Positions 34,326 through 56,900 are shown, counted from the stretch's first letter. The stretch is DNA of 56,900 nt from Candidatus Binatia bacterium (GCA_040877705.1 JBBDNJ010000297.1:1-56900), one strand, 5' to 3'. Notes: a model not told the origin generated them from the letters alone. Numbers and translations: made by a program.

Positions 34326-34413
34326 TTCGAATCTCCGTGCGTAAATCCCGTCAACTGACAGCGGTTCAATAAATCAGCGCGTGTATCTGATTCCGTATCC
34401 TTTAGAGGAGCGT

Positions 34414-36083: not shown

Positions 36084-37142
36084 GTGAGATCCTTTGAACA
36101 CAACTATCTGTTTGATGCGCCTCTTTCCCACGCTCTTCTTATAACGGTCCGTTCCCTCGGTGAGTTTCGCGGCCGTCAGGTTCTATACTCCGAACAGTCG
36201 CCTGAAATCCTGGAGACATTGAGACGTGTGGCCATGGTTCAGAGCACCGAATCTTCAAACCGCATAGAAGGCATTACCGTCGCAGCGGACCGGCTTGAGG
36301 CTTTGGTCGTGAAGAAAGTAACGCCCAAGGACCGTTCGGAGCAAGAAGTCGCAGGATACCGAGACGTATTGGCGACGATCCATGCCAACTACAATAAACT
36401 GCGCTTGTCCACAGATTTGATTCAGAGCTGGCACAAACAGATGTACCGCTTTACGGGAGAATCTGGAGGTGAATGGAAAAAGAAAGACAACGCGATTTTA
36501 GAGGTTCTTTCTGACGGTCGGCAGGTGGTGCGTTTTCAGCCGGTCTCGGCGCTGGCGACAGCAAAATCGATGGAGCGTCTTGTCACCTTGTTCAGCCGTG
36601 CGATGAACGAGGGTAAGACCGATCCGCTGCTTCTGATTGCTTCATTTGTTTTTGACTTTGAGTGTGTCCACCCATTCATGGATGGGAACGGACGCATTGG
36701 ACGTTTGCTGACTATTTTGTCACTCTACCAAGCCGGTTACGAAGTAGGACAGTATATCAGCCTGGAGCGGATTGTAGAAGAGAGCAAAGAAACCTACTAC
36801 GAAGCTCTTCTCAAGAGTTCCCAGAAGTGGCATGAAGCGCAGCATGACCTCTGCCCCTGGTGGAACTACTTTTTGGGCATGCTGACCGCGGCCTACAAGG
36901 AATTTGAGTTGAGGGTTGGGTCCATAACCTCGGCGCGAGGAGCCAAGAGGGAAATGGTCCAGCGGGCGATTGAGCGGATGGTGGGCCGTTTCACCATTGG
37001 AGACCTCAGGCGAGTCTGTCCTGGAGTTAGCTATCCTACTTTACAACGCGCTCTCGCGGATCTAAAACGGAAACGGAAAGTGAAGTGTTTGGGGCGTGGA
37101 CCAGATTCTCAATGGGAACGCATCCGGGGGGTGATAAGATAA
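36084..37142 (+). CDS. Fic family protein (Fic_N + Fic + C-terminal wHTH architecture)
   Basis: Canonical Fic motif HPFMDGNGRIGR, an N-terminal inhibitory-helix-type motif SSNRIEG (S-x-x-x-E-G), and a C-terminal segment (RFTIGDLRRVCPGVSYPTLQRALADL) that resembles a wHTH. GTG start. Confidence 0.85.
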   Translation: MRSFEHNYLFDAPLSHALLITVRSLGEFRGRQVLYSEQSPEILETLRRVAMVQSTESSNRIEGITVAADRLEALVVKKVTPKDRSEQEVAGYRDVLATIHANYNKLRLSTDLIQSWHKQMYRFTGESGGEWKKKDNAILEVLSDGRQVVRFQPVSALATAKSMERLVTLFSRAMNEGKTDPLLLIASFVFDFECVHPFMDGNGRIGRLLTILSLYQAGYEVGQYISLERIVEESKETYYEALLKSSQKWHEAQHDLCPWWNYFLGMLTAAYKEFELRVGSITSARGAKREMVQRAIERMVGRFTIGDLRRVCPGVSYPTLQRALADLKRKRKVKCLGRGPDSQWERIRGVIR

Positions 37143-37409: not shown

Positions 37410-38042
37410 GTGAGTGAACAGGTACTCATTGCGACGTTAGGTTCGGAGCCTCAGGTTGTCACTCTGGTACTGGACCAGCTGCGGGAGAAGGGGAATCCGA
37501 TAGCGGAAGTGATAGTCGTGCACACCATGGGAGAATCAGTGCAGCATTCATTAATGCGTCTCAATGATGAGTTCAGGCGGGCGGGAAGCCCCCGTTACAG
37601 AGCCGTGACGGTGGAAGACAAAGGTTGGCCGGTAGCCGATATCGGTACGGAGGATGAAGTGGCGGCACTGTTGCGGACGCTCTACCGGACGGTCCTCGCC
37701 GAGAAGCGAGCCGGGAGGCTTGTGCACATGAGCATCGCCGGCGGACGAAAACCAATGGCGGTCTATGGAATGGCCGTCGCCCAGCTTCTCTTCGATGAGG
37801 ATGATCGAGTGTGGCACTTGCTTTCAGAAGGGTGGAAGCCGGGGGATGAGCGGGTGATGCATGCGAAACCTGGCGATGCAATTTCACTCCTGCCCGTGCC
37901 GGTGTTGCGCTGGAGTTCGGTGTCGCCAGTGATGACGGAGCTGGCGGTTCCTAACCGCGACCGGCAAGCGCCGCTTGCTAGGCTGCGGAAGAAAGAGGTC
38001 GAGGTTTCGCTCGACTTTCGCGGCCCAGGTCCAAACGATTGA
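37410..38042 (+). CDS. CRISPR-associated Cas_NE0113-family (CARF-like) protein
   Basis: VLIATLGSEPQVVTLVLDQL at the N-terminus and HMSIAGGRKPMAVYG match my recollection of the NE0113 (TIGR02584-type) family pattern (tlG.sPqvvTe...; h.SiAGGRKtM). No fused effector domain is evident in the 210 aa. GTG start. Confidence 0.65.
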   Translation: MSEQVLIATLGSEPQVVTLVLDQLREKGNPIAEVIVVHTMGESVQHSLMRLNDEFRRAGSPRYRAVTVEDKGWPVADIGTEDEVAALLRTLYRTVLAEKRAGRLVHMSIAGGRKPMAVYGMAVAQLLFDEDDRVWHLLSEGWKPGDERVMHAKPGDAISLLPVPVLRWSSVSPVMTELAVPNRDRQAPLARLRKKEVEVSLDFRGPGPND

Positions 38043-38246: not shown

Positions 38247-38642
38247 ATGAAAGCGATCAGATTGACCCCGGCAGAAAGAGCGGCGATCACAAGAAAGTAG
38301 CGACGGGCGAGCGCAAAGGCTCATGCTACAGCTCGAAACGCCAAGTTGTTTGCGAAATACGCTCTTGGCAAAGCGGGGTGGAAGGTTGCGTCTCTCGATA
38401 GCCCCTAAGGCTTCGAATACAAAGGCGTCGTGGACCTTGTGGCGGTCAAGCGAAACAACCGATCTCCCGATGAGCTTACGATCATGCTGGTTCAGGTTAA
38501 GGGTGGGAGCGCGAGAGTAACGAAGGAGGAGCTTTCGAGACTTCGGAGAGCTGCAAGCCACCCGCGGGTTACATGGAACGTGGCAGCAAAACCCGCTAAA
38601 AGCGTCCGCTTCAAGAAGTCCTTAGATTGGGAGACTGAATAA
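38247..38642 (+). pseudogene. decayed Hjc/PD-(D/E)xK-like small nuclease gene with two in-frame stops
   Basis: A single frame from ATG 38247 to the stop at 38640-38642 reads MKAIRLTPAERAAITRK*RRASAKAHATARNAKLFAKYALGKAGWKVASLDSP*GFEYKGVVDLVAVKR...IMLVQVKGG, with TAG at 38298 and TAA at 38406. The G-W-x-V ... DLVAV ... VQVK layout resembles archaeal-type Holliday-junction-resolvase-like nucleases. Its stop overlaps the cas10d ATG (TAATG). Confidence 0.45.
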
Positions 38643-41296
38643 TGGATCGAAAGGAAATCATGACTAAGGCGGCAGCATGGATGCAGGCGCGTGGCTGGAA
38701 AGAGAAACTTGCCAAGCGTCGAGGTTATGAGCAGAGCCTGTTTGAGCACAGCCTGATTGAGCTTGATGTTCTCCTTGAGCTTCTGCCGATCCTCGCGAGC
38801 CCGCGACACTACGGCCTAAGTGAAGCCGAGGAAGCAGTCCTGACAATCGCCGTGCTCGCCCACGATGTCGGTAAAGAAACTGACGCCTGGCAGGTCTACA
38901 TCGGCGATCCCCAGCCGGACCGCTGGGTGCCTCACATTCTTCCCGAGTTGACCAGAGCAGTGGTACCGGAGCTCTGTGCGACATTAGGGTTTTCGGAGCA
39001 AGGTGAGGCAGTTGAGCGCATCATGGCGCACTGTGCTGAGTTCCACCACAACCGGCCAGGAAGAAGTGATGGGGCCATCTTGGAAGCGATGCTTAGTGGC
39101 GGGTCGGATCGCTTTCTCACACTGGCCTATTTGGTCAAGGCCATTGACCACTTCTGCTCCGCTGCCACGGTTGCCGATGCCGAGGACGCGTTGAAGAATG
39201 ATCCCGCGCTGGGCCGGCATCTCGTCGTCGCGTCTCACGAAGCCATGGTTCGGGGCGTCTCGACGGCATTCCTTCACCACGCCGCTCGAGCCGAATTCCA
39301 GCAACGAGGATGGAAGCCTCTCCTGTATTTCTCCAACGCCACTTTATATGCAGCCGACCCTAGCGATCACCATAATATTCCCACGGCAGAAGAGATTGGC
39401 AACGGCCTCAAGACGGAAATTGACAGGTCCATCAGTCGAGACGTAACCCCACTGATGGTTGGAAGCCCCACAGGGAACATTCTCCCCAAGCCGGATCTCT
39501 TCGCCTTCAGCGAGTCCCGGCAGTACCTCCGCAGTGCCGCAAGCAAAATTAGTCCGCAAAGCTTCGCCAAGAAGAAGCTGCCGGCAAAACGCAAAGTGGT
39601 CGAGGACTACTGGAAACTCCAGGGCCGAACCACCAAACCCACGGATGCACAGGTTGAGGAAGAGTCCGCTCGCATCTCGGTAGCCCAGCCCGAGATGCTT
39701 GTCTTCAAGTTTTTCAAAGCCATGTTGGACCCGGACAAGGTCGAGGTTGTTGGTGAGGATGGCGCCGTTCTAGCCAAGAAGCTCTACGAGGAAACGTTCG
39801 GGTCTGGCAGTTGGGCTGCGCTCCAGTCCACGTCCACCATTATGCCAGCCAAGGACATGGGAAAGACTATCGACTACTTCTGGGCGCTGCCAGGTGCGGC
39901 GGTAGGCCACTCTCAAGTTACAAAGGTCGCAGAGCTTCCAAACGAGATTCGCGTGCAGGTATTGATTGATCTACTCGATGCTATCGCCCAGAAGGTCTAT
40001 TCAGCAATTAGCCGACCATCGCCGAGAGATAAGTTGTCTCAGGACATGGCCACAGCATTCATCAATGATCTCCTGAGGCCAATAGACGGCGGTAACGTTC
40101 AAGCTATTGCTCAACAGCAACTAAGCTACTACACACAGTCAAAGCCCTTTGCTGGAAAAGAGAGCGCGAAGGGAATTTATCTGTGTCCGATCTGTAATGC
40201 TCCTTTCGATCAGAATCATGGAATCAAAGCCTCGGCCGACTTCATCGAAAATCCACAGACCCACACTAATCGTGGGATAGCGCATGGATCCTTCGGTTAC
40301 ATCATGGTCTGCGTTACTTGCTACTACGAGCGGCTCCTCCTCCAGATACTTCTCGGGAGTCGTCCGGCGGAAATGATCACGCTTTTGCCCCGACTCAACC
40401 TGGGGCCGGGGAAAGGCGAGCAGTTGGTCAGCAAAGTCCAGGGTTGGGTAGAGGCAGCCAAAGGGCAGATGCGAGGTGAAACCGGCAACCTGGAGTTCGG
40501 ATTTTCGCTCGGTTTCACCGATCAAGCAGCCCGTCACATAAAGGAGCGTGACCCCTTTTCTCTAAAGCCCGAGGAGCTGCTCTCGCTCTTCAGTTACCGT
40601 TTTACCGCCGACACCCGGCAGAAAAGACGCCGAGAAGCGATGAGACGGCTTAAAGAGGAGTTCGATAACGACTTCGAAGCCCTTAATCTTGCCACTGGTC
40701 AATCCTTCGGGACATGGGACGATGCTGTTGAGGCCCTCATCGCAAATCGACTTAATCAGCAGGAGTTCAGGGCGATTCGTCGGGAGGTCTTTCGCCTCTA
40801 TGAAACGATACATCTGATTTGCGAGACGCCTAACTTGATCTTCATCCCGCTCAGTTACGAGATCGCGTCCGGTAACGACGAATCGGAAACGAGCCGAGGG
40901 CTGCGGCGGCTCCACGTGGCCTTGCTCCTGAGCCTTGTCTTTGACGCCTCTGTGGCCATTCACAAGACGGATGAACCAGTGGACTTCCGAGGCGGACTAG
41001 GGGCAGCCTACGTGCCTCCGATCCCGGCGGTCCGCTCTCTTGTGGGCTACGACTGGCTGTCCATCGGTGAGGCAAAGCGTTGGCTCTCCGCGATCGGCGC
41101 GGCAAGCCTGTTGGTGCGAGATACCGGTCTGCCCGCACGCTCCGCTCTTTATCAAATTCTTACGATGGACCCTCCGGAAAAGCTCGCTCGTCGCATTGAG
41201 GAAAAAGGCGACACTTCTCTGACGCCGCGTCATATTAGTTTAATCGAGCAGTTGCCAGCCTTTCACAGAACCCGGGAAAAGGAGGTGCGCCCGTGA
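38642..41296 (+). CDS. cas10d: Cas10d-like large subunit with N-terminal HD nuclease domain (type I-D-like)
   Basis: 884 aa with HD-domain residues near the N-terminus (LFEHSL; VLAHDVGKE, HD at 38861-38866; AEFHHNRPG). An internal Cys pair cluster (LCPICNAPF ... MVCVTCYYE) resembles the Cas10 Zn finger. No GGDD-type cyclase motif was seen. It heads an operon with Csc2-, Csc1- and Cas3'-like genes. Confidence 0.7.
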   Translation: MDRKEIMTKAAAWMQARGWKEKLAKRRGYEQSLFEHSLIELDVLLELLPILASPRHYGLSEAEEAVLTIAVLAHDVGKETDAWQVYIGDPQPDRWVPHILPELTRAVVPELCATLGFSEQGEAVERIMAHCAEFHHNRPGRSDGAILEAMLSGGSDRFLTLAYLVKAIDHFCSAATVADAEDALKNDPALGRHLVVASHEAMVRGVSTAFLHHAARAEFQQRGWKPLLYFSNATLYAADPSDHHNIPTAEEIGNGLKTEIDRSISRDVTPLMVGSPTGNILPKPDLFAFSESRQYLRSAASKISPQSFAKKKLPAKRKVVEDYWKLQGRTTKPTDAQVEEESARISVAQPEMLVFKFFKAMLDPDKVEVVGEDGAVLAKKLYEETFGSGSWAALQSTSTIMPAKDMGKTIDYFWALPGAAVGHSQVTKVAELPNEIRVQVLIDLLDAIAQKVYSAISRPSPRDKLSQDMATAFINDLLRPIDGGNVQAIAQQQLSYYTQSKPFAGKESAKGIYLCPICNAPFDQNHGIKASADFIENPQTHTNRGIAHGSFGYIMVCVTCYYERLLLQILLGSRPAEMITLLPRLNLGPGKGEQLVSKVQGWVEAAKGQMRGETGNLEFGFSLGFTDQAARHIKERDPFSLKPEELLSLFSYRFTADTRQKRRREAMRRLKEEFDNDFEALNLATGQSFGTWDDAVEALIANRLNQQEFRAIRREVFRLYETIHLICETPNLIFIPLSYEIASGNDESETSRGLRRLHVALLLSLVFDASVAIHKTDEPVDFRGGLGAAYVPPIPAVRSLVGYDWLSIGEAKRWLSAIGAASLLVRDTGLPARSALYQILTMDPPEKLARRIEEKGDTSLTPRHISLIEQLPAFHRTREKEVRP

Positions 41297-41904
41297 GAGT
41301 TCCCATTACCGTCCAGATCAAGCCTTTTGATATCGAGAGCGTCCAATCCAAAATCGATTCAGCGCGAGAGGCGTTGACTCGCTACCTCGATGAAGTGCCT
41401 CGGAAGTCAACTCGCTCGAAGCATGGCCTTATGGGACCGGTTGGAAAGATCCTGAGCGAAGTGAAGAGTGGGCGGCGCGATCCCGCCTCTCTCAAAGGTT
41501 ACGCTGTCCGTGTCCACGAAGCGACAAGCAGGAGCCCGTCTCCGGCAGGCCTTCAAGCACTCGAAGAGGGAATCGACCGGATAGTCAAATTACTCACCGA
41601 AGTTCCCATCACGGCACATGATCGCCTGCTCGACCGGCTAGACTACGGGCTCTACTACGACCTTCGTAAAAAGGAGCTCGAATCAAAAGAGATGCGACGC
41701 CAGGCATGGATCGGATTCCTCCGTAACAAGTACGATACAGAGGCGAAGCTTTCTGAAACCTGGGGGGAGCAAATCGCCACTTTTGACGAACTTTACCTTC
41801 CGCGGAAAGCTGAGGGATCGAAGACCAAGAAAGCTACGGCAAAGCAACACGACATTACCGCGTTCTGGGAGTCGCAGGGTGTCACTACCGATGAGGAGGA
41901 GTAA
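41293..41904 (+). CDS. hypothetical helical protein, candidate stand-alone small subunit (Cas11d-like)
   Basis: 203-aa charged, helix-rich ORF. Its GTG start overlaps the cas10d stop (GTGA) and its stop abuts the cas7d ATG. The role is assigned by position only. Confidence 0.35.
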   Translation: MRVPITVQIKPFDIESVQSKIDSAREALTRYLDEVPRKSTRSKHGLMGPVGKILSEVKSGRRDPASLKGYAVRVHEATSRSPSPAGLQALEEGIDRIVKLLTEVPITAHDRLLDRLDYGLYYDLRKKELESKEMRRQAWIGFLRNKYDTEAKLSETWGEQIATFDELYLPRKAEGSKTKKATAKQHDITAFWESQGVTTDEEE

Positions 41905-42855
41905 ATGACGATAATCGCAGAGAAGTTGAAGGGCTACTTGGTAGACAGGCCACGGCCGCTGATTGGGGCTGAAACGATCCAACTTATTCTTTTACGCGAA
42001 GTCCTCGACTATACCGTGCTGAGGACGGAAGAGACCCGTGAGCTGAACTCCGTCAACACGCCGCTCTCCGAAGCGGATCGGGCTACGACAGCGAAGCGGG
42101 TTGCCTTTCTTGGCTCCAAGCAGAAAGCCGCCGAATCCCGCGAGATGGAATACTTGCTCCGGTCCGCCACGGCGGCTTCTGGCAAGGACATACCATCCGG
42201 AAAGAATGGCGAAGGGTGCTATCTAAAGGACAATCTCTGTCTCCGGTGTCCCCGCTGCGGACTTTACGGCGCGACGGCGCTTGGTCAGGAAGCGAACATC
42301 AAGCACCGGATCGAATACTCAACGGCTTTCTCTCTCCTTCCGTTCGATCAGATATCGGAAGAAATCACTTTCAATGCTGTCAGCGAATTGGACCAGACAA
42401 CCGGTCAGGCATTGGGTAGTCGAAATGTCGTCAAACCCGCAAGCCTTTTCCCGTCCATTGTGACCCTGAAGGGGGTAACGCGAGAAGAGTTGGTTCTTAC
42501 GGTAAAAACCCTGCTGGCTTGCAAAAGCTATGGCGCCGAATCGCGTATCGGCGGCGACTGCCGGAATACATTTTTTGGTGTCATTGCCGGATGGGAGGAG
42601 ATGATAACACCCCTGGAGCTGACGGTGGAACTTTACGACCAGAAGGACGGCTTGGACCCCGCAGCTCTGAAAAACCTTCTGGTGCAAAAATACAAGGCGC
42701 TCGCCGGGAATCCTGATCGCATTTTGGTACTCGACCCTGCCGAGGTGGACGCGCTGTTCCAGGAGTGCGCTCAAACACCTCTCGACCGGGCTTTCCTCGA
42801 CAAGGCATACAACGACATTACCGAGTATCGTAGGGCCCAAGGGGAGAAAGTTTAA
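41905..42855 (+). CDS. csc2: Csc2/Cas7d-like backbone subunit
   Basis: 316 aa with a CLRCPRCGLYG Cys motif, FPSIVTLKG and KSYGAESRIGG segments that fit my recollection of Csc2. The size and the position between the large subunit and the Cas5-like gene also fit. Confidence 0.6.
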   Translation: MTIIAEKLKGYLVDRPRPLIGAETIQLILLREVLDYTVLRTEETRELNSVNTPLSEADRATTAKRVAFLGSKQKAAESREMEYLLRSATAASGKDIPSGKNGEGCYLKDNLCLRCPRCGLYGATALGQEANIKHRIEYSTAFSLLPFDQISEEITFNAVSELDQTTGQALGSRNVVKPASLFPSIVTLKGVTREELVLTVKTLLACKSYGAESRIGGDCRNTFFGVIAGWEEMITPLELTVELYDQKDGLDPAALKNLLVQKYKALAGNPDRILVLDPAEVDALFQECAQTPLDRAFLDKAYNDITEYRRAQGEKV

Positions 42856-42873
42856 TCTGCAGGAGGCGGCTTC

Positions 42874-45174
42874 ATGGAGAAACTCAAAAAGATCTGGAGC
42901 CAATATGGCGGGGAAAAATGCGTGCTACTTGTGGGCGCAGGCGTCTCGTATTCGCAACCTTCCAATTTTCCGACAGGTTCGGCTTTCATGAGCACTGTTT
43001 TGAAAAAATGTGCAGTGGATGACAGTACGAAAATACTATTAGACGACCTTTGTGATAACAAGAGATCTGATGGAAATTGGCTCAGATTTGAAGGCTTACT
43101 GGAGGTTCTCGCACGGTTCGTTGACAAGGAATTAGGCGTCTTGAAAATGTATGCTGGCAACCAGAAAGGAGACAATCAGTTTGATGGGGGAATACCTAAT
43201 GACAATCACGGGTTTTTGGCGAGCCTTATTAGGGCTGGCCATTATGTTGTTACAACAAATTTTGATGTGCTAATCGAAAAGGCGATGAATCCTAGCAATA
43301 AGGGTTTTGTTACCGAGGATCAATGGGAGAAATTTACAGCAGGGGCGAACCCTGGTTCGCTGCTTAAAATACACGGTAGCCTACTACGGTTTGAAAATGG
43401 AGGCTGGGTTTGGAATGACGGTGAACACCCTGCCGCCCCTGTGGTCACACTACGCCGAGTTTCACGAACACGGCAATCCATTGTGAGGCGGAACAAATTC
43501 GGTGAACTCTTGGGTGATTTCCCACTGCTGGTTGTAGGATATTCCGCCAGCGATGACTTTGACGTGTCTCGGTGGCTACTCGAGATCAAATCGAATCAGC
43601 CAGTGCTATGGATTCAGCACACGCAAACTAGTAAGCCGGATCACTGCCAATACCTTTCCGGGGCCGACGTGGCATTGGGAATGGCTGGAGTTTCCCCGGG
43701 GCTGCTAGAAATTGCACAGCACTGGCAGAGGGATAACGGAAGTACTTATGGCAGGAAATTGGACTTACTCCATGTTTTTAAGTGCAGCACCCCAGAAGCA
43801 CTGGCGGCGTTCTCCGCTACCTTAGGTCAGCAAGGCTCCTCCCCAAACTTTTCGAAAGAGAGCCATAAAGAAGAACCCTCGGGAAGTCTTGATAGTTTCC
43901 TTAAGACTTGGGCAGCTAAGCATGTTCCTAATAAGTGGAGCCAGTCTTTAGTCAGTGGGGCTCTCCTTGCACACTGTTTTCACTTTCCAGCAGCGAGGGA
44001 GCTTTTGGAGAAGTCTCTCGAGGAGGCCAAGGACGACTATCAGAAAACCCAAAGTCTCGTGCTGCTTTCCGAAACAGAATCGGAGCTCCCCTTGCCCGAA
44101 GACAAGGCGGTCGCGCTACAGCATGCAGCGCAAGCCTTTGACACAAGCCCCGGGCAAAGAGAGGCTCGTCTGGCTAGAGCAAATGCTCTGCTCTATTGCA
44201 GTCGGCTGCTTAAGAACCTGTCTTTCCTGCAGCGCGAAGAGTTGAAAAAAGAGGCAGAGAGTATATGGAAGGCAATTTGGGACAATTCTAAAGCTTCACC
44301 TTTCGAAAGATCGCGTGCAGCGGCGGAACTTTATCGGATGGATCGACACTTTGGGGGGAGAAATGCGCCGGAGATAGATAAAATAAGACAACAAGACCTG
44401 GCAGTCGAAGCCTTGATCATTCATGAAACCGCACGCCGGGACAAGTGGCAACAGGCGAGATCTGTGACAGATATCAGAACAGCCATTCAGGATATGACAG
44501 CTGCGGTGGATCTCCGTGAACGACTTGGGGAGTTACGCGGGCTCTGCGCCAGCACGAATGTGCTTGGCAATATGTACCAACGACTGTGGGAGTGGATCAC
44601 ATGGGAAGTGGGCTCAAACCCTGGAGAAGCGGAACAGGAAATTAAACGGGCCTTGTACTGGCATGAGCGATCTGTGGAAATCGCCGAGAGATACGGCTTC
44701 AGATGGGATAGAGGTCAGGCTGAAGTTGCACTTAGCGTCCTTTGCCTACGTTGGGAAAATGATTCTGTTAAGGCTTGGTCACGTCTTCTCGAAGCTGAGT
44801 GCGAACGCGAAACCAACGGTTCTGCGGACAATATAAAACTTGACCTTCAGCGGGCTATTTTGGTCACGTTTCGGAGGGGGACTGTAACAGAGGGAGTAAG
44901 AGTCGCCCGTGACCTATTTGCACACATCGTAAACGACTACGGGCAAAAAGAAGACACACGGCAGGACCGGGGGATCGGAGCAGCACAAGTTAACATGAGC
45001 ATTTGCGATTGGGTCCTAGGTAACTCATTTGTGTTGCCGTGGCCTGACGTGTTTAAGGGAAGCACCTATTGGAGAAAGCGAATTATGAAAACCCAAGCAA
45101 AACTTGATGAGCATCGGGAGAAAGGCATGCCTGAGCCCGACCTCCATCGGATATTCTTGGATCCACTCCCTTGA
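42874..45174 (+). CDS. SIR2-like (SIR2_2-type, NADase-class) domain protein with long C-terminal helical/TPR-like repeat region
   Basis: The N-terminal roughly 235 aa carry the SIR2_2 pattern in order: VLLVGAGVSYS (42934-42948), VVTTNFDVLIEKA (Asn codon 43258-43260), LLKIHGSL (His codon 43372-43374) and LLVVGYSASDDFD. The remaining roughly 500 aa are helix-repeat-like. No Walker A motif is present. A GGAGG site lies 8 nt upstream of the ATG. Confidence 0.75.
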   Translation: MEKLKKIWSQYGGEKCVLLVGAGVSYSQPSNFPTGSAFMSTVLKKCAVDDSTKILLDDLCDNKRSDGNWLRFEGLLEVLARFVDKELGVLKMYAGNQKGDNQFDGGIPNDNHGFLASLIRAGHYVVTTNFDVLIEKAMNPSNKGFVTEDQWEKFTAGANPGSLLKIHGSLLRFENGGWVWNDGEHPAAPVVTLRRVSRTRQSIVRRNKFGELLGDFPLLVVGYSASDDFDVSRWLLEIKSNQPVLWIQHTQTSKPDHCQYLSGADVALGMAGVSPGLLEIAQHWQRDNGSTYGRKLDLLHVFKCSTPEALAAFSATLGQQGSSPNFSKESHKEEPSGSLDSFLKTWAAKHVPNKWSQSLVSGALLAHCFHFPAARELLEKSLEEAKDDYQKTQSLVLLSETESELPLPEDKAVALQHAAQAFDTSPGQREARLARANALLYCSRLLKNLSFLQREELKKEAESIWKAIWDNSKASPFERSRAAAELYRMDRHFGGRNAPEIDKIRQQDLAVEALIIHETARRDKWQQARSVTDIRTAIQDMTAAVDLRERLGELRGLCASTNVLGNMYQRLWEWITWEVGSNPGEAEQEIKRALYWHERSVEIAERYGFRWDRGQAEVALSVLCLRWENDSVKAWSRLLEAECERETNGSADNIKLDLQRAILVTFRRGTVTEGVRVARDLFAHIVNDYGQKEDTRQDRGIGAAQVNMSICDWVLGNSFVLPWPDVFKGSTYWRKRIMKTQAKLDEHREKGMPEPDLHRIFLDPLP

Positions 45175-45209
45175 GCATGAGCCTTGTTTGGTCCCAGGGA
45201 GATTAAGCA

Positions 45210-45968
45210 ATGGATAGCCATTTTAGCCCTAGCCAAAGCGATCCTCTTGAACTCAACGCACAGGGAATTCGGCTCTACGCCGGACGTCTTTATAACCACG
45301 ATTACCTCTGGTTTTCGTCGTTCGAGATCTCAAAGACCGCCGCCATCCTGCCACTGATTCACAACTACGCCCTGAGCTACGCACTTTGCGGTTACTCGTA
45401 CGGAATCTATACAGGGAGTACGCCGCGTTACGCCGAGGACCTCAATGCCATGCAAGCCTACGCCACTCCGGCTCGGCCGCAGGCGCTATCGGCTCGAACT
45501 CGGCTCACCCAAAACGCAGTCAACTCACGCACGCTGAGAACTGACGACGCTCCCCGCGGGAGCAACAGCCCGGCGCTGGGATGGCGCCTCGTTCTCGATC
45601 CAGTCTGGCACGACGGTGCGGGCGCAGGCGACCTCCTTGGGTTCAGCTTTTATCTCTTTGCCCGCGCCTCATTTCATCCACCTTCCGTGGTCAGACTTGG
45701 CAAGAAAGGCTGCCCGGTCCGGCTCGACTGGCAGGAAATTACGGGAGCGGTGGGGCTCTTTACCGATAACGCGGTTCGCCCCTCCCATGCCGTCAACCCA
45801 CTTGATGTTCAGGGTGAAATCATTTCCTACGAACCGTTGCCCATCCCCCCGCACCTGATTTTTCGGGTGGCCGAGATCCAGAAGGACTGGTTTGTGTTTG
45901 CTGGTGAGCACGTTGTCCACATACCACGGCGATTCGCCTTGCCCAAAGGGGCCGCTGCTCAAATCTGA
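45210..45968 (+). CDS. csc1: Csc1/Cas5d-like subunit
   Basis: 252 aa. The N-terminal HDYLWFSSFEISKTAAILPLIHNYALSYAL fits the Csc1 pattern as I recall it (..dylfFasrE......p.ihNYALtYAL). Confidence 0.6.
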   Translation: MDSHFSPSQSDPLELNAQGIRLYAGRLYNHDYLWFSSFEISKTAAILPLIHNYALSYALCGYSYGIYTGSTPRYAEDLNAMQAYATPARPQALSARTRLTQNAVNSRTLRTDDAPRGSNSPALGWRLVLDPVWHDGAGAGDLLGFSFYLFARASFHPPSVVRLGKKGCPVRLDWQEITGAVGLFTDNAVRPSHAVNPLDVQGEIISYEPLPIPPHLIFRVAEIQKDWFVFAGEHVVHIPRRFALPKGAAAQI

Positions 45969-45972
45969 ATCT

Positions 45973-46875
45973 ATGGCTATCCAGCCCTCTAAGTCCTTAC
46001 AAGAAGCGCTTCACCAAGCGATGCTTGAAATTGCCAATCTTCGTAACAGACTGCCAGGAGCCAAAGCTGGCCAAGTTTTGGATGCTTTCGACAGGATCGA
46101 AAACATTTGGGCCAAACAAGATGTGGAGCAGTTTCCCTTCAACACGTTGTCCAAGGAAATAGACACCATCCGAATCGAGGTACGGGAAGCTTTCAGTGGA
46201 GAACTCGATCTAGCAGTAGATCGGAGATCTGCTGTTTTCGACTTGGTGGTTGCTCTTGATCACCGATTCCGGATTTACAGTGAGCTGGTAGCCTTCGATC
46301 CCATTTATCACAGTTTGGAAAGACGCCTTCAACGAATTGACGATGTCTTGCCGTCACGAAATTATGCGATAGGAGACCTACTTTCTGAATTACGCCCTTC
46401 CTTTGATCCTAATTTGAAAAGAAGACTTGAGAGCGCCGTAGAACATTTCGGACGTGAGGAATACGAATCGGTTCTTACCGAATGCGGCAAAGCCGAAGGG
46501 ATGTTTTTCTCTCACTTCAAAAGACTGATGGCATCCTTCGGGATTAGCGAACTTCCGGATCAAACTGGTTCCGCCATCCGCGCTATTCGCAGGATACTCG
46601 AATCAAAACAGGACACGCGAGGGCTTTCTCTTGCCAAGAGTAGCCGCCTTGAACATTTCGTACTCTACATGTCTGAAACGCTCCATTATTTTCGTAATCT
46701 TGGGGCTCATGATCGCGCCGAAGAAGTCGGAAACGAAAAACTTCCCGAATGGCAGATTCAACGTAGGGAGCTTTTTACCCAAAAACCGGAATATGCTCGG
46801 CTTGCTTTAGTCTTAGCAGTTCAGATCGCGATTGAATTACAGGCTCTTTTGGAACGACAGGAATTGAAGACATGA
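45973..46875 (+). CDS. HEPN-motif protein (unknown N-terminal helical domain + C-terminal HEPN-like domain)
   Basis: 300 aa from ATG 45973, which lies 4 nt after the cas5d stop. The C-terminal third has LESAVEHFGREEYESVLTECGKAEGMF followed by HYFRNLGAHD. RNLGAH (46693-46710) fits the HEPN R-[N]-x3-H catalytic motif and is followed by a final helix. The stop overlaps the cas3' ATG (ATGA). Confidence 0.55.
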   Translation: MAIQPSKSLQEALHQAMLEIANLRNRLPGAKAGQVLDAFDRIENIWAKQDVEQFPFNTLSKEIDTIRIEVREAFSGELDLAVDRRSAVFDLVVALDHRFRIYSELVAFDPIYHSLERRLQRIDDVLPSRNYAIGDLLSELRPSFDPNLKRRLESAVEHFGREEYESVLTECGKAEGMFFSHFKRLMASFGISELPDQTGSAIRAIRRILESKQDTRGLSLAKSSRLEHFVLYMSETLHYFRNLGAHDRAEEVGNEKLPEWQIQRRELFTQKPEYARLALVLAVQIAIELQALLERQELKT

Positions 46876-48881
46876 TGTTCACGGTGCAAGCTTGTGGACT
46901 TCCGGTGCTAGAACATCCGGCCTCCCGGGGGCCCCCCTTGTACCCTCACCAGGTTGCGATGTGGAAGGCATGGGAGGAGCACCCGGCGATGCTCCTCACA
47001 GCAAAGACGGGGACCGGTAAGACGCGGGCGGCGATGTTGCCGGTACTGAAGCGGCGCGAGGGGGCGGTGGCGGTGTATCCCACAAATGAGCTTTTGAGGG
47101 ATCAGGTGCGAGCTGTAGCGAAGTTTGCGACGGAAGAAGGAATCGAGCCGCTCGTGTGGTTGCCGGAAATGTGGCATGCCTCTGATCGAGCCGAGCTATA
47201 CAGCCGCGCAGCTCACGTCCTGATTCCTGTAGACGGCAACATTCTGGATCAATGGCAGGATGTGATGCACTGCAAAAGTCGGGGTGAAACGTTGCGACGG
47301 CTTTTCGATCCGGACAAGCCCAAGATCATCTTTACCAATCCGGATATTTTGTTTCTCATCCTGGGGCTTCGGTATCACGCCGAGCCCTTTGAAGCACTGA
47401 GGCGCTACGAGACGTTGATTCTGGATGAGTTCCACCTTTATCAGGGCGTAGAGCTGGCCCATGCCCTTGCTATGGTTGCACTTGCCCGCGGGTTCGGGAT
47501 CTTCCGGCGGTTAGTTTTGCTCTCCGCGACACCGCATCAGCAAGTCCGTTTATTGTTGGACCGGGCGATCAGTCCGACGATAATTGACTCGCATATCGAA
47601 ACGCATTCTGCATCTGGATGCTCGCGCACGGCGGTCCATTCCGTCGAGGTCGAGCCGATCCAACTTACGGGTGGGGACCCGATTGAAATTCTCCTTTCTC
47701 GAATTGTCGATCTTAGGCATGCACTCGAAAGATTGCGTAGCGACATCCCTGATGAGGACTACCTTCCGGCGGTGGTCATCGTTAATTCGGTTCTGAACGC
47801 CATCCGCCTGGAAGATCGGCTGGTGGAGTCGGGTTTTCCCCGAAACACTCTGGCGATCATCAGAGGGCTCTCGCACCGGGCTATAAGGGACACCAGAGGC
47901 AAACTCTTAGCGCTCGGAACCTCAGCCGTCGAGGTGGGGGTAGACTTTCGCTGCGATTATCTTTTCTTCGAGGCTTTGGAAGCCGCTTCGTTCCTTCAGC
48001 GGTTCGGCCGCGTGGGTCGTCATGGGCCAGGGAAGGCTATTGTTCTGGTGCCACCCAACGCGTTTCAGGGGATGAGCAGCATTCCGGGCGCCATCGATCG
48101 AGCCACGTTCGAGGAGCGCGTCTATGCCTGGTACCCGTCGGCAAGTGCATACCCTTGGTTCGTCACGACCGAAAGTGGCATGACAACCGTCAGAGCCCAG
48201 GGCGAGAACCTGATTTCAACAGTTCAGCAAGACCGAAACGTGACGCCAGAAGTAATTTCCAAGCTGCGCGAGAAGATCGATGCAATCCTGGCCGATCTTG
48301 CAGAGCGCCTCGGATGCCCGGATAGGAACCTACAGGCCAAAGGCGCCTTTGAGCGTTGCGCGACTGGGAAGAAAAGCGCCCACTGGCTTGATGTGTACCG
48401 CCGGTTGAACCGTTTCCGGACGTCGCTACCAAGTGTCAGGATTCATGACTTCATGGAGCAGAGCCGGCGCAAGGAATGGGATCTGGGCGAATATGACATT
48501 GACGTGGCCACTCTCCTGAAGCGCGCCGTGGGACTCACTTGGAACGATAAGTTGGAAACACTGACAATCAAGGGGCTCGGAAAATACCGCCGGGTCCATG
48601 CCAGCGAGATATTCAGTGACGACGACTGCGGTATGATTCACGAGACACAGAACTGGCCACAGTTGCGGCTCTACCAGGACGGTGAGTCAACACCAGTTTC
48701 GGATCTCATGGCACGTGAAAATCATATCTTCACGGTCGTCCCCAAGGTGGAGGTAGAATCCCAGTTGGATTGGCGATTGCCGGTGTTTGAAGCGGGTAGG
48801 TATCTGGTTGCCTTTGATGGAGCGGCGTTGTTGCTTTTGGAGCTCTGGAAAAAAACAAAAGAGGCAACAAGGGCAACGTGA
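46872..48881 (+). CDS. cas3: Cas3' superfamily-2 helicase without HD domain
   Basis: Has Walker A (AKTGTGKT), a DEFH box (LILDEFHLY), SAT (LLSATP) and motif VI (LQRFGRVGRHG). No HD motifs are present, consistent with the HD being on the large subunit as in type I-D. Confidence 0.8.
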   Translation: MMFTVQACGLPVLEHPASRGPPLYPHQVAMWKAWEEHPAMLLTAKTGTGKTRAAMLPVLKRREGAVAVYPTNELLRDQVRAVAKFATEEGIEPLVWLPEMWHASDRAELYSRAAHVLIPVDGNILDQWQDVMHCKSRGETLRRLFDPDKPKIIFTNPDILFLILGLRYHAEPFEALRRYETLILDEFHLYQGVELAHALAMVALARGFGIFRRLVLLSATPHQQVRLLLDRAISPTIIDSHIETHSASGCSRTAVHSVEVEPIQLTGGDPIEILLSRIVDLRHALERLRSDIPDEDYLPAVVIVNSVLNAIRLEDRLVESGFPRNTLAIIRGLSHRAIRDTRGKLLALGTSAVEVGVDFRCDYLFFEALEAASFLQRFGRVGRHGPGKAIVLVPPNAFQGMSSIPGAIDRATFEERVYAWYPSASAYPWFVTTESGMTTVRAQGENLISTVQQDRNVTPEVISKLREKIDAILADLAERLGCPDRNLQAKGAFERCATGKKSAHWLDVYRRLNRFRTSLPSVRIHDFMEQSRRKEWDLGEYDIDVATLLKRAVGLTWNDKLETLTIKGLGKYRRVHASEIFSDDDCGMIHETQNWPQLRLYQDGESTPVSDLMARENHIFTVVPKVEVESQLDWRLPVFEAGRYLVAFDGAALLLLELWKKTKEATRAT

Positions 48882-49082: not shown

Positions 49083-49376
49083 ATGAAAGTCTATAGGGGA
49101 ATCGTGAAAGGCAATACGATCTTGCTGGAAGAGAAGCCGGATTTGCCGGACGAATGTCCGGCGCTCGTGGAGATCAAGCCAATCGACGAGGCGCGGGACC
49201 GGGAGATCGCGCGGAGGCACATCGCATTGCTCAAGAAGGCGCCGCGCGTGGGTAAGTCGCTCTACAAGAAACGCGAGGAGCTTTATGAGGGGAGAAAAAG
49301 GGGACAGGCTGCTTTTGTGCACAAGCGCAAAGATGAAAAAGGATTGTGGTGCAGCGGTGCGGGCGGGATAGATTAG
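49083..49376 (+). CDS. DUF104/AF2212-like small antitoxin-type protein, paralog 1
   Basis: MKVYRGIVKGNTILLEEKPDLPDECPALVEI fits the pattern of small antitoxins of the 'MK.i.g.y.nG.i.l.e...LPeg..v.v.i' type. It is a paralog of the 49898-50116 gene. Confidence 0.5.
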   Translation: MKVYRGIVKGNTILLEEKPDLPDECPALVEIKPIDEARDREIARRHIALLKKAPRVGKSLYKKREELYEGRKRGQAAFVHKRKDEKGLWCSGAGGID

Positions 49377-49396
49377 GCGCGGGGAACCGGGAGCAA

Positions 49397-49801
49397 ATGA
49401 TTTCTAAAACGAATGCTATTACGTATGCTTTTCGCAAACCCAGATTTCCCTTGATCTGCGACCTTGGCGGTTTTCTCGTCGCCGCCGAATCGCCCGCCGC
49501 TTTGCAGCGCCGTCTTGCCGGTAGGGACCTTCCTACGGAGAGAAAAGTCCGGTTAGTCGACGCACGCGGGGAAGGCTGGATGCTCCTTCCAAACGAAATG
49601 ATCGTGGCTCCCGGCTTTACGACGAGAAGGTGGCGCAAGATCGAAATCATTCGCTTATTCAACGGCAGCCGCAACGCGAAAGAAACCGGCCAGCGCTATC
49701 CAGAACATGTGATAGCAAACAGACGCCTCGACGCCATCGTTTGCGAAATCGCAGCGCTTTTGTCTCGAGAATGGACCGCCGCTTCAAGACATCGTTGCTG
49801 A
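49397..49801 (+). CDS. hypothetical protein
   Basis: 134-aa ORF from ATG 49397, downstream of antitoxin-like paralog 1. No family was recognised. Confidence 0.3.
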   Translation: MISKTNAITYAFRKPRFPLICDLGGFLVAAESPAALQRRLAGRDLPTERKVRLVDARGEGWMLLPNEMIVAPGFTTRRWRKIEIIRLFNGSRNAKETGQRYPEHVIANRRLDAIVCEIAALLSREWTAASRHRC

Positions 49802-49897
49802 AGTGCATCGTATGAGACGCGAGACACGAAAACGATATACCTAAATCCCAGAAAACAGTTGGGAGATAGAGTAACCCGGCCAAAACCAGGAGGCAGA

Positions 49898-50116
49898 ATG
49901 AAACCATACCGAGGGGTTGTAAGAGGCAATACGGTGATCTTGGAGGAGACGCCGGAGGGGGCCGAGGGCGCGGAGGCGATCGTGTTGCTGAAAGTTTCTG
50001 AGGAGGAGGATCAGATAATTGTCCAGCGCCAGAAGGCGATGCTGCAAAAGGGCTTTCCGATGGGCAAATTACACTACAAAAAACGGGAAGAGTTGCACCG
50101 TGGAAATGAAAAATGA
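49898..50116 (+). CDS. DUF104/AF2212-like small antitoxin-type protein, paralog 2
   Basis: MKPYRGVVRGNTVILEETPEGAEGAEAIVLL...KLHYKKREELH parallels paralog 1 (..KSLYKKREELY). A GGAGG site lies upstream, and the stop overlaps the next ATG (ATGA). Confidence 0.55.
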   Translation: MKPYRGVVRGNTVILEETPEGAEGAEAIVLLKVSEEEDQIIVQRQKAMLQKGFPMGKLHYKKREELHRGNEK

Positions 50117-50454
50117 CTAGACGCGTAAAGTTGAAATCTAAGGACGCGGCGGCGCTGGAAGAATTTGTGCGAAGTTTGCGGTCCGCACTAGGGAAAAACT
50201 TGCTTGAGGCGAAACTCTTCGGTTCCAAGGCCACAGGAAGAGATCAACCGGATTCAGACATCGATGTGCTCGTCGTCGTGAATCAGAACGGCGTGGAGAC
50301 CGAGGATAGGGTTCTGGACATCGCGTTCGATGTCAACCTCAAGCATGACGTCTATATCTCGCCGCGGGTCATTGACCGCTCGATTCTCTCAGATCCGGTA
50401 TGGAGCATCACGCCTTTTCTTCGGGCCGTTGCAAAAGAAGGGATTCCGCTTTGA
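50113..50454 (+). CDS. minimal nucleotidyltransferase (MNT-type) protein
   Basis: LFGSKATGRDQPDSDIDVLVVV matches the GSxxxG...DxD polymerase-beta-type nucleotidyltransferase motif of MNT components of MNT/HEPN modules. Confidence 0.8.
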   Translation: MTRRVKLKSKDAAALEEFVRSLRSALGKNLLEAKLFGSKATGRDQPDSDIDVLVVVNQNGVETEDRVLDIAFDVNLKHDVYISPRVIDRSILSDPVWSITPFLRAVAKEGIPL

Positions 50455-50499
50455 AGGCGGAACGAAAAAAAATGAGCGATGGGAAGATGAGCTGAAAAG

Positions 50500-51087
50500 A
50501 TGGCTGACCGGGACGATAAATCACGCCCTAATTTGATTGCACCGCACGGCGGCTATCGCGAGCTGAAGTCTTATCAGAACGCGGAGATAGTCTATGACGC
50601 AACCCTTGCGTTCTGCGATAGGTTTGTCAGCCGTCGTTCGCGTACGCATGACCAGATGGTACAGGCTGCGCGCAGCGGTAAGCAAAATATCGCCGAAGGC
50701 AGCATGGCATCAGGCACGTCAAAGAAAACCGAACTCAAGCTGGTGGGCGTGGCGCGGGCCAGCCTCGAAGAGCTGCTGCTGGACTACGAGGATTATTTGC
50801 GGCAGCACGGACTGGAGATCTGGGAAAAAACCCACTCAACCGCTCAGGTTGTCAGAAAGCTGGCTTACGCCAGCAATAGGTCCTATGGGTCGTATAAGCC
50901 CTATATTGAAGAAAACTCCCCGGCCCTTGCCGCGAATACGCTGATTTGCCTGGTTCACCAAACGAACTATCTGCTCGACCAGCAACTACGCCAGCTTGAA
51001 CAGCAGTTTTTGGAAGAGGGCGGCTTTACGGAGAAACTCTATCGAGTCCGAAGCCAGGCAAGGAAGAGTCGAGGCTATGGCAAGTGA
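50500..51087 (+). CDS. four-helix-bundle protein (23S rRNA intervening-sequence / Avd-like family) with suffix domain
   Basis: YRELKSYQNAEIVYDATLAFCDRF...MVQAARSGKQNIAEGS is the characteristic pattern of this family. Confidence 0.7.
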   Translation: MADRDDKSRPNLIAPHGGYRELKSYQNAEIVYDATLAFCDRFVSRRSRTHDQMVQAARSGKQNIAEGSMASGTSKKTELKLVGVARASLEELLLDYEDYLRQHGLEIWEKTHSTAQVVRKLAYASNRSYGSYKPYIEENSPALAANTLICLVHQTNYLLDQQLRQLEQQFLEEGGFTEKLYRVRSQARKSRGYGK

Positions 51088-51310
51088 TTCTGCGCTTTTG
51101 GTCAAAACAGGGAAGTTTACCGCAGAGCACCAGAGAGTTTTACAGGACGCTTTTACGGATCGGAGCGCGGGAGACTATGCGGGCGTATTCCCTGCCCGCG
51201 AAGAGGTGGAGCGCCGCTTTGTGGAAGCCGTCTTTATCCGCTTTGATGAGGACCGAAGTGTCAACGACGATCTTCTCGGCCATAACGACTATCTCGGTAG
51301 TAGCGAATGA
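51077..51310 (+). pseudogene. possible N-terminally truncated HEPN-domain gene (partner of the MNT gene)
   Basis: ALLVKTGKFTAEHQRVLQDAF.DRSAGDY resembles the C-terminal half of small HEPN proteins (..sH.gv...f ... R..gDY). The N-terminal helices are missing. It overlaps the 4HB gene end and the RHH gene end. Confidence 0.3.
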
Positions 51311-55024: not shown

Positions 55025-56900
55025 GTTTCAAAGATCGTCCCGATGAAGAGGGAACTGAAAGATAACCAGCTTACCGAGCGCAGTCAGCCCTAAGGGTTTC
55101 AAAGATCGTCCCGATGAAGAGGGAACTGAAAGCACGAGTGACTCCATTTTGCCGCCACGGTATTTTTTGTTTCAAAGATCGTCCCGATGAAGAGGGAACT
55201 GAAAGATCGAAGAGGACCTTCAGGTTGACTTAGGCCTTGGTTTCAAAGATCGTCCCGATGAAGAGGGAACTGAAAGGTTCCAAGCGTCTCATGAGTTCGC
55301 GAGCCTCGCGCGTTTCAAAGATCGTCCCGATGAAGAGGGAACTGAAAGGCTCGCCGCCCAGCGCGCCCGGCGTGCCCTCGGTGGGTTTCAAAGATCGTCC
55401 CGATGAAGAGGGAACTGAAAGTAGCCAAGATCCCGCGCGTCCTGCGACTTTCGCCGCGTTTCAAAGATCGTCCCGATGAAGAGGGAACTGAAAGTCCATG
55501 CGCCAGTCGATTTCCATGAACGCGCAACCCTGTTTCAAAGATCGTCCCGATGAAGAGGGAACTGAAAGTAGAGTACGACGCGCCGGTGTCGACCAGTACC
55601 TTGGTTTCAAAGATCGTCCCGATGAAGAGGGAACTGAAAGTGATCAAGCAGTGCTTCGCGCTGCAGGCGCGGTTTCGTTTCAAAGATCGTCCCGATGAAG
55701 AGGGAACTGAAAGGTAGAAGGCGTTGTGATGGAATGCGCTCCCGCTGTGTTTCAAAGATCGTCCCGATGAAGAGGGAACTGAAAGTTCGGCAAAGTGCCG
55801 AGCTCGGCTTCGATCTTTTGTTTCAAAGATCGTCCCGATGAAGAGGGAACTGAAAGGAGGACGTCGAGACCCGCTACGACAACGCAATTGCGTTTCAAAG
55901 ATCGTCCCGATGAAGAGGGAACTGAAAGTGAAGAGCTTAGCGGCCAAGGAGGCGAGCGCGAACCGTTTCAAAGATCGTCCCGATGAAGAGGGAACTGAAA
56001 GTCGGAGAAGAGCGATCGGATGGTGGAACGCTCTTTACGGTTTCAAAGATCGTCCCGATGAAGAGGGAACTGAAAGAACGAAATGCCGGATGAGATAACG
56101 AAGGAGTACGAGTTTCAAAGATCGTCCCGATGAAGAGGGAACTGAAAGACTTTAAGTCCACATGTATCCCGAAGGCGTCGCTGGTTTCAAAGATCGTCCC
56201 GATGAAGAGGGAACTGAAAGAACAACTGGTGAGAATCAGCGCGCTGAAACAACTGGTTTCAAAGATCGTCCCGATGAAGAGGGAACTGAAAGCGTCGATC
56301 GCTTCCTGGAGTCCTTCGGTTACCGAGGTTTCAAAGATCGTCCCGATGAAGAGGGAACTGAAAGAGCCATTCTGCGCTTCGGAGAATGTAACCGTTACGG
56401 TTTCAAAGATCGTCCCGATGAAGAGGGAACTGAAAGCATTAGTTGAGTCAGGTAGACCTGCAGAATGGCATGTTTCAAAGATCGTCCCGATGAAGAGGGA
56501 ACTGAAAGAATAATAACCAATCGGCGCTGACATTTAACTTCTGGCGTTTCAAAGATCGTCCCGATGAAGAGGGAACTGAAAGGAAAATCCTACTGGGGAA
56601 TCCGGGTTGGTAATGATCTGTTTCAAAGATCGTCCCGATGAAGAGGGAACTGAAAGTTTCGAGACTTTGCATAACTCGGATCGCGTTCATGAGGTTTCAA
56701 AGATCGTCCCGATGAAGAGGGAACTGAAAGGTCGCGTTCCATGACAAAAGCTTATTAGCCTCGGGAGTTTCAAAGATCGTCCCGATGAAGAGGGAACTGA
56801 AAGTGGGAAGACCAGTCATGAACCGGTGATTGCCTAAATTCGTTTCAAAGATCGTCCCGATGAAGAGGGAACTGAAAGACAGGTACATGGCTTCAGCGTC
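55025..56900 (+). CRISPR. CRISPR array: 26 identical 37-nt repeats GTTTCAAAGATCGTCCCGATGAAGAGGGAACTGAAAG, 25 complete spacers of 34-38 nt plus a partial one, truncated by the window end
   Basis: Repeat starts were read directly at 55025, 55096, 55169, 55240, 55312, 55385, 55458, 55532, 55604, 55677, 55749, 55820, 55892, 55965, 56040, 56112, 56184, 56256, 56328, 56400, 56472, 56546, 56620, 56694, 56767 and 56842. The 37-nt length and the ...GGGAACTGAAAG 3' end resemble known type I-D repeats (…GGGACTGAAAC). Confidence 0.98.

Follow-up and report, generated by a model that had tools for sequence, protein, structure and literature searches.

A predicted SIR2 NADase gene lodged between cas7d and cas5d of a type I-D CRISPR-Cas operon

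A type I-D CRISPR-Cas locus of a Candidatus Binatia bacterium (GCA_040877705.1, contig JBBDNJ010000297.1; the window is the whole stretch analysed, 56,900 nt) carries a gene for a SIR2-solenoid protein between cas7d and cas5d, which encode subunits of the Cascade effector complex. The protein joins an N-terminal SIR2 domain to a C-terminal helical solenoid, and its place in the operon raises the question of whether it is a recruited part of the CRISPR machinery or a defence gene that merely lives there. On balance the gene is probably a guest of the cas operon, encoding a DSR-like single-protein abortive-infection NADase (NAD+-hydrolysing enzyme) that would be co-transcribed with the cas genes and independent of Cascade. 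Its genomic position is unusual but apparently accidental. The protein is 100% identical to the NCBI entry 'MAG: SIR2 family protein [Candidatus Binatia bacterium]', from a 56900-bp contig. Feature coordinates are collected in Table 1.

The empty site is present in L096, a related I-D locus (the L numbers denote the loci compared) that matches the window at 92.4% nucleotide identity over 41992-42854 and at 96.2% over 45237-47340. These two blocks, on the cas7d and cas5d sides, lie just 12 nt apart in L096, so that the insert runs from about 42856 to 45236, and the boundaries against L008 and L011 are the same. Nine GTDB loci with Cas7d 68-93% identical to that of the window were also fetched. 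The junction is visible in eight of them (L004, L005, L006 and L008-L012), and in all eight cas5d begins 0-55 nt after cas7d. Four more loci reached via the 300-aa gene downstream of cas5d (L097-L100) likewise have cas5d directly after cas7d. Neither L096 nor some ten other distinct related I-D loci carry the SIR2 insert, and its position is the result of a recent one-off insertion.

The insertion left cas5d translatable. The nine new codons at the right end of the insert (MDSHFSPSQ) are in frame with the ancestral cas5d, whose original ATG is lost; in relatives cas5d begins ATGAGCGAT..., and the homology of the window picks up at AGCGATCC (45237). The SIR2 gene is on the same strand as its neighbours, separated from cas7d by 18 nt and from cas5d by 35 nt, with no terminator-like site in either gap, and for these reasons it is probably co-transcribed with the cas operon. 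Counts in the promoter and terminator scan were equal to the shuffled expectation, and the scan is uninformative beyond these two terminator-free gaps. The G+C content at third codon positions is 0.50 for the SIR2 gene versus 0.59-0.71 for the named cas genes, and the correlation of its relative synonymous codon usage with that of the pooled cas genes is 0.11 versus 0.39-0.86. The codon usage of the SIR2 gene is foreign, and the gene is horizontally acquired and spliced cleanly between cas7d and cas5d. A transposon- or integron-type insertion was considered and rejected, because neither direct nor inverted repeats mark the ends of the insert and no transposase is present.

The first 320 residues form a defence-type SIR2 domain in which the catalytic Asn and His and the glycine-rich NAD loop are all present. 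SIR2_2 is the only Pfam family found in the protein (residues 125-244, E 3.5e-10, 40.6 bits vs a cut-off of 24.5). Single-sequence phmmer against the PDB gave only noise, and a full-length family profile was swamped by TPR proteins because the distant homologues carry canonical TPRs; the SIR2 domain was cut out instead. The profile of this domain has its best PDB match in the Sir2 subunit of SPARSA (8jkz, 8in8; 2.3e-12), followed by KomC (3.5e-11), DSR2 (8k98; 4.6e-11) and ThsA (6lhx; 9.3e-10), with canonical sirtuins far behind these defence sirtuins. A model of residues 1-320 alone is confident (predicted local distance difference test, pLDDT, 83.2; predicted template-modelling score, pTM, 0.86). 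In Foldseek its top match is ThsA (8bto, E 5.6e-8), and ThsA, KomC, DSR2, SIR2-HerA and SPARSA Sir2 are all matched with probability 1.00 and template-modelling (TM) scores of 0.45-0.57, the highest (0.57) being SPARSA Sir2. One eukaryotic relative, human FAM118B, appears lower in the list, also with probability 1.00. The SIR2_2 score, the PDB profile matches and the Foldseek comparison bear out the earlier sequence-only reading, which had recognised a defence-type SIR2 domain here, and they place it among the defence SIR2s and not outside the superfamily.

The same reading had called the catalytic residues intact and had located four motifs (GAGVS, TTNFD, KIHGS and VVGYSASDDFD), and both calls hold: all four coordinates match, and N129 and H167 are invariant and align with N133 and H171 in the profile alignment to DSR2. 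Mutation of these DSR2 residues abolishes its defence (bioRxiv 10.1101/2021.12.14.472415). Across 15 homologues with 19-42% identity, the invariant residues are G21, G23, S25, R71, H112, T128, N129, D131, E135, H167, G168, G222, S224, D227, F229 and D230. The VVGYSASDDFD motif aligns in part with GYSGRDE of SPARSA Sir2 and IGYGLGDY of DSR2. By this homology the SIR2-solenoid protein is predicted to be an NADase. Membership of the DSR families at the sequence level is another matter, since none of the PADLOC models for DSR1 or DSR2 reached E 0.01. The only PADLOC models matched at that threshold are PDC-S65, Aga_SIR2 and PDC-S25. The best of these, the uncharacterised candidate PDC-S65 (E 4.2e-12), covers just residues 17-139 of a 592-position model and had no mention in the literature search; the match to Aga_SIR2 is weak and partial (E 7e-4, residues 110-142).

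The C-terminal part of the protein is a solenoid of predicted helices. The full-length AlphaFold2 model (mean pLDDT 82.9, pTM 0.83) is alpha/beta up to about residue 320, has a low-confidence linker at 324-336, and consists of helices without strands from 339 to 762. Its best full-length Foldseek matches are the TPR domains of LGN/Pins, in a list dominated by TPR proteins with low TM-scores, and the only SIR2-plus-solenoid protein among these matches is DSR2, with a global TM-score of about 0.2. No Pfam TPR family reaches E 0.01 anywhere in the protein, so that the tail is TPR-like by predicted fold and not by sequence profile. The helical region of the original description, given there as TPR/HEAT-type repeats, is confirmed, with about 22 helices and TPR fold matches. 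That description had also excluded a STAND or Avs-type protein for want of a Walker A motif. This is confirmed by the absence of both [AG]xxxxGK[ST] and any GK[ST] from the whole 766-aa protein and by a model with no beta-strand past residue 304; the protein is not a STAND NTPase. A phmmer search of 1.84 billion cluster representatives found 31 proteins related to the solenoid. Ten were scanned, and a SIR2_2 N-terminus is above the Pfam cut-off in eight, sub-threshold in one and absent from one. The solenoid domain is rare, with some 25 relatives in all among these representatives, and is tied to SIR2.

The relatives of the whole protein live elsewhere. Only five close relatives are found among 5.8 billion clusters, and a second profile search gave no close family members beyond those five. 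The closest is 41% identical, with no cas7d or cas5d in its 400-nt flanks. A metagenome scan recovered at least 259 related SIR2 genes, and 80 loci, with a median ORF (open reading frame) of 767 aa, were kept for context. The cas check was done by tblastn with the window proteins at E 1e-4 around about 90 loci; homologues of the cas, CARF or WYL genes of the window are found at 0 of the 80 metagenome loci, and homologues of its cas genes in 0 of eight annotated contexts. A conserved partner gene for the family was looked for in 79 neighbourhoods and rejected, as tandem SIR2-TPR paralogues were the only recurrent neighbours. Among the annotated relatives, the neighbours are HicA/HigB genes in L002, insertion sequence (IS) elements together with a GAP1-N1 GTPase system in L001 and L094, and PIN/Phd, HicA and an integrase fragment in L101-L103. 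No relatives were found in the phage, plasmid and viral-contig collections. The SIR2-solenoid family is otherwise CRISPR-independent, and the recurrent association with cas genes that marks a Cas accessory gene is not seen.

The host locus is a complete chromosomal type I-D system, with Cas10d-HD, Cas7d, Cas5d, Cas3', Cas6, an adaptation module and an array. Residues H36, H74, D75, H98, H135, H136, D169 and H170 of the Cas10d HD domain are invariant with relatives that have no SIR2 gene. Compared with L096, cas7d has a ratio of nonsynonymous to synonymous substitution rates (dN/dS) of 0.08 and cas5d one of 0.10 (dS 0.24-0.29), and both genes are under strong purifying selection. With its HD residues intact, dN/dS low and 26 perfect repeats in the array, the CRISPR system looks functional and no effector is missing. 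The idea that the SIR2 protein stands in for a lost nuclease is ruled out by the intact Cas10d HD motif and Cas3'. Cyclic oligoadenylate signalling from the nearby CARF gene to the SIR2 protein was also rejected, since the GGDD cyclase motif is missing from the Cas10d of the window, and neither a CARF nor a SAVED domain is present in the SIR2 protein.

DSR2 of Bacillus subtilis (PDB 8k98, 8wkx and others) is the known system closest to the favoured reading. In both, a single polypeptide carries a SIR2 NADase domain at its N-terminus and an all-helical solenoid behind it, with an equivalent catalytic Asn/His pair and no need of partner genes. DSR2 is longer, at about 1005 aa, and the TPR-like C-terminal region here is unrelated to it in sequence; another difference from DSR2 is the setting of the present gene inside a cas operon. 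DSR2 is activated by a phage structural protein, the tail tube. On the DSR2 model, the solenoid here would hold the SIR2 enzyme quiet until a phage-made protein binds, and the released SIR2 domain would then deplete NAD+ so that the infected cell stops growing. A role of the solenoid as a sensor of a phage-made protein that gates the NADase is plausible, and likelier than Cascade binding. In this scenario the functional chromosomal I-D operon gained the gene horizontally from a small, otherwise CRISPR-independent family. With the insert came a ribosome-binding site for the SIR2 gene and a fresh start for cas5d. The SIR2 protein would form a second defence layer, co-transcribed with Cascade but acting independently of it.

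Several points weigh against this reading. Both the NADase activity and the trigger are predicted by homology, and as the protein does not belong to DSR1 or DSR2 by sequence, the DSR2 mechanism is only an analogy. For a passive guest the site is unusual, lying in the effector module where two Cascade subunit genes meet, with short gaps and a cas5d start rebuilt in frame, and it would equally fit a recruited subunit. Two diverged relatives lie beside multi-component GTPase sensing systems, which hints that members of the family could at times act as plug-in effectors for other sensors. The tblastn check around the relatives would miss very divergent cas genes or lone CRISPR arrays.

Other defence sirtuins are less similar in organisation. 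ThsA of type I Thoeris is the top Foldseek match of the SIR2 domain and shares its conserved catalytic residues, but there is no SLOG domain here and no ThsB/TIR gene in the annotated locus (about 30-57 kb). The neighbours of SIR2 in SIR2-HerA (Nezha) differ as well, since the present gene is flanked by cas7d on one side and cas5d on the other, and no HerA turned up in the locus. Avs5 and other SIR2-STAND-TPR proteins also combine a SIR2 effector with TPR-type repeats, but the present protein has no NTPase module. SIR2_2 plus TPR proteins from sediment metagenomes and Asgard archaea share the TTNFD and KIHGS motifs, a GYSGSDDFD motif, the two-part architecture and a median length of 767 aa. 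Pfam detects canonical TPRs in these, but finds none in the window protein and the roughly 25 proteins nearest to it, whose solenoid is a distinct one.

The sequence-only reading had suggested that the repeats could bind Cascade subunits or a phage protein. A Cascade-coupled effector is the first alternative to the favoured reading. The solenoid would dock on Cas7d, Cas5d, Cas10d or Cas11d, and crRNA (CRISPR RNA)-guided target binding would activate the NADase. Such an effector would resemble SPARSA, which pairs a short Argonaute with Sir2, or the type III SIR2 effectors. SPARSA (SIR2-APAZ with a short prokaryotic Argonaute, pAgo; PDB 8jkz, 8in8, 8jl0) is both the best profile match and the highest by fold, and as a guide-dependent SIR2 NADase it is a conceptual precedent for coupling to Cascade. 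Here, however, the APAZ domain is missing, no pAgo is seen among the annotated ORFs, and a TPR-like solenoid takes up the C-terminal part. In type III CRISPR loci SIR2 effectors occur fused to CARF or SAVED, according to the legend of Fig. 2C in PMC10910872. As that legend describes them, they too are SIR2 domains encoded in a CRISPR-cas locus, but the present protein has no CARF or SAVED fusion and its host is type I-D with a Cas10d that lacks GGDD.

The position between cas7d and cas5d on the same strand, the gaps of 18 and 35 nt free of terminators, the Shine-Dalgarno sequence of the gene itself and the preserved translation of cas5d all favour coupling to Cascade, as does the presence of a conserved accessory gene with an Rx4H motif within the effector operon of the same I-D variant. 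Comparison of loci does not back it, since the insertion is a singleton, missing from a locus 92-96% identical and from the other related I-D loci, and the cas homologues of the window are at 0 of about 90 loci of relatives. The codon usage of the SIR2 gene is not ameliorated, and Cas10d HD and Cas3' leave no vacancy for an effector. A literature search found no paper with both SIR2 and Cas10d, and a search on Cascade, SIR2 and type I CRISPR gave only reviews and unrelated SIR2 papers. On this evidence there is only a small chance that the protein is coupled to Cascade in this way.

The protein may instead not be a defence NADase at all, but a neutral or decaying passenger or an enzyme of another chemistry, such as protein deacylation or ADP-ribosylation. 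In favour of this, the family is rare, with only the five close members noted above. Decay fits poorly with an intact 766-aa ORF and a confident model, and the active-site residues are all conserved over the 15 diverged homologues. Canonical sirtuin deacylases are defined by a Cys4 zinc-binding module. The SIR2-solenoid protein has no CxxC pair anywhere, and so it lacks this module. Defence NADases head the matches both by profile and by fold, and a role outside defence appears about as doubtful as coupling to Cascade.

A slimmer chance is that the protein is an orphaned plug-in effector of some other sensor, such as a GAP1-N1 DO-GTPase system, and is either silent or activated in trans. Two diverged relatives, P0003 and P0011, share 27% identity, and each has a GAAD/GASH/DO-GTPase2/DO-GTPase1/GAP1-N1 conflict system as its same-strand neighbour (regions L001 661-12492 and L094 372-9905). 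The two GTPase systems are only 25-36% identical to each other, so this neighbourhood either is old or arose more than once, which speaks for such a role. It is found at only two of about 90 loci, however, and both systems already have a GAAD-fused phosphoesterase effector (PMC7159879). A tblastn search with the GTPase-system proteins of L094 found no homologue in the window. The linkage between SIR2 and the GTPase system may be real, or it may be a coincidence within defence islands.

CreTA toxin-antitoxin modules safeguard Cascade, and they offer a conceptual likeness to a last alternative, a Cascade guard. That intact Cascade restrains the NADase, or that a phage anti-CRISPR protein triggers it, so that phages able to disable I-D interference would provoke abortive infection, is very improbable: only the operon position and the habit of this lineage of keeping toxin modules inside the cas locus speak for it, the singleton status and the family context count against it as they do against coupling, no repeat-like sequence (up to 3 mismatches) occurs in the window outside the array, and no degenerate CRISPR repeat, CreA-like or other crRNA-like element lies near the gene. 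Coupling and guard function are unlikely even when taken together. It is similarly unlikely that the I-D Cascade has captured the SIR2-solenoid NADase as a partner, with either target binding or an attack on Cascade leading to NAD+ depletion.

If the SIR2-solenoid protein acts alone, as favoured here, the defence sirtuins would gain a small, as yet uncharacterised family whose helical sensor domain is its own. The locus would then be a clean and datable case of a cas effector operon in which an independent abortive-infection gene has landed, with the empty site available for comparison, and it would bear on the origin of layered immunity and of 'defence islands within operons'. Were the protein coupled to Cascade, it would represent a new interference mode, the first abortive-infection arm of type I CRISPR caught at recruitment, and a natural starting point for RNA-guided NAD+-depletion tools.

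Table 1. Positions of the SIR2-solenoid gene, its domains and motifs, the insert boundaries and the genes of the host locus (window coordinates unless a locus is named)
Feature	Coordinates	Strand	Remarks
Inserted segment, ~2.38 kb	~42856..45236	+	Defined against the empty site in L096
Shine-Dalgarno sequence AGGAGG	42861..42866	+	7 nt before the SIR2 ATG, 5 nt past the cas7d stop
SIR2-solenoid ORF	42874..45174	+	ATG to TGA, 766 aa, uninterrupted; SIR2 domain and helical solenoid
SIR2 (Rossmann-type) domain, residues 1-320	42874..43833	+	Pfam, profile, Foldseek
GAGVS glycine loop, residues 21-25	42934..42948	+	Predicted NAD-binding; pairs with GAGxS of SPARSA Sir2, KomC and DSR2
TTNFD, residues 127-131	43252..43266	+	N129 codon 43258-43260; opposite DSR2 VITTNYD
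KIHGS, residues 165-169	43366..43380	+	H167 codon 43372-43374; opposite DSR2 KVHGD
VVGYSASDDFD, residues 220-230	43531..43563	+	Family-specific motif, end of the Rossmann core
TPR-like solenoid, residues 339-762	43888..45159	+	~22 helices, all-helical; predicted sensor/regulatory domain
Insert right end	45196..45236	+	Shine-Dalgarno AGGGAGA, new cas5d ATG (45210), nine new codons
WYL regulator (WYL-WCX)	34381-35394
Fic, SoFic-like	36084-37142		SoFic defence model 5.7e-38
Stand-alone CARF, 210 aa (Cas_NE0113)	37410-38042		Without effector domain
cas10d	38642-41296	+	PADLOC Cas10d 1122 bits; HD motif intact
cas11d, separate gene	41293-41904	+	PADLOC Cas11d 9.2e-77
cas7d (csc2), upstream neighbour	41905..42855	+	Pfam Csc2 1.4e-42; PADLOC Cas7d
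cas5d (csc1), downstream neighbour	45210..45968	+	TIGR03159 cas_Csc1 2.6e-17; PADLOC Cas5d
Conserved ~300-aa gene	45973-46875		Between cas5d and cas3'; ORF call begins at TTG 45892
cas3' helicase	46872..48881	+	Pfam DEAD, Cas3-like_C_2; PADLOC Cas3 I-D 2.2e-44
Small ORFs	49083-51647
cas6	51650-52621	+	PADLOC
cas1	52713-53903	+	PADLOC
cas2	54066-54344	+	PADLOC
cas4	54341-54916	+	PADLOC
CRISPR array, 26 identical 37-nt repeats	55025..56878	+	Reaches the contig end
PIN-RHH/PemK/MNT-HEPN gap after cas3' in relatives	L097 12928-15175; L099 13069-15927

The I-D lineage of the window tolerates guest modules. The gap after cas3' is occupied by modules of toxin-antitoxin type: relatives host PIN-RHH, PemK and MNT-HEPN pairs (MNT, minimal nucleotidyltransferase) between cas3' and cas1. 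The window itself has an MNT-type nucleotidyltransferase gene (50113-50454, PADLOC PDC-S09) between cas3' and cas6, and a weak 23S_rRNA_IVP-like ORF comes after it. Relatives also differ in what lies between cas5d and cas3'. In L008 (11661-15887) this slot holds other ORFs over about 4.2 kb, one of them for a RAMP-domain protein; in L011 (988-8547) it holds about 7.5 kb of ORFs without known identity, and in L005 (11844-13682) the 300-aa gene split by a DDE transposase; in L010 (11621-11648) it is empty. The first 33 kb of the window encode ordinary metabolism genes.

The 300-aa gene has 26 homologues with 52-99% identity, is present in L004, L006 and L096-L100, and has no Pfam or PDB match. 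R241-N242-x3-H246 ('YFRNLGAHD') is invariant in its product and forms an Rx4H motif that resembles those of HEPN RNases, and one of 14 members of the family has a weak Abi_2 match (E 0.21). A HEPN identity is a motif-level lead. The gene (45973-46872 vs 1660-2514 in L096) is 99.2% identical to its L096 counterpart with dS 0.015, whereas the surrounding cas7d, cas5d and cas3' are 92-95% identical with dS 0.12-0.29. This difference in dS suggests that the 300-aa cassette was recently exchanged between lineages.

Among the relatives of the SIR2-solenoid protein, tandem SIR2-TPR paralogues are frequent in sediment metagenomes (L018, L028, L048 and about 13 other loci). One metagenome protein of 1430 aa has a DUF4062 N-terminus and a centrally placed SIR2 domain. 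In L002 (1154-3418), the relative P0004 (581 aa) is apparently split, as its tblastn similarity to the window protein runs past the stop to residue 641, which points to a frameshift or an assembly error.

Next to a Cas10d that lacks the GGDD cyclase motif, the stand-alone CARF gene is an odd presence in this type I-D locus, and its protein has no tblastn match in the I-D relatives L004-L012. Classical I-D systems make their small subunit as an internal translation product of cas10d, while in the variant found here cas11d is a separate gene. The closest full-length I-D relative, L008 (6744-17806, Cas7d 93% identical), has broken frames in cas10d, cas7d and cas3' that are probably long-read assembly errors rather than decay. 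The gene order also varies, with cas6 lying downstream of cas3' in the window and L008 and upstream of cas10d in L004-L006, L097 and L099.

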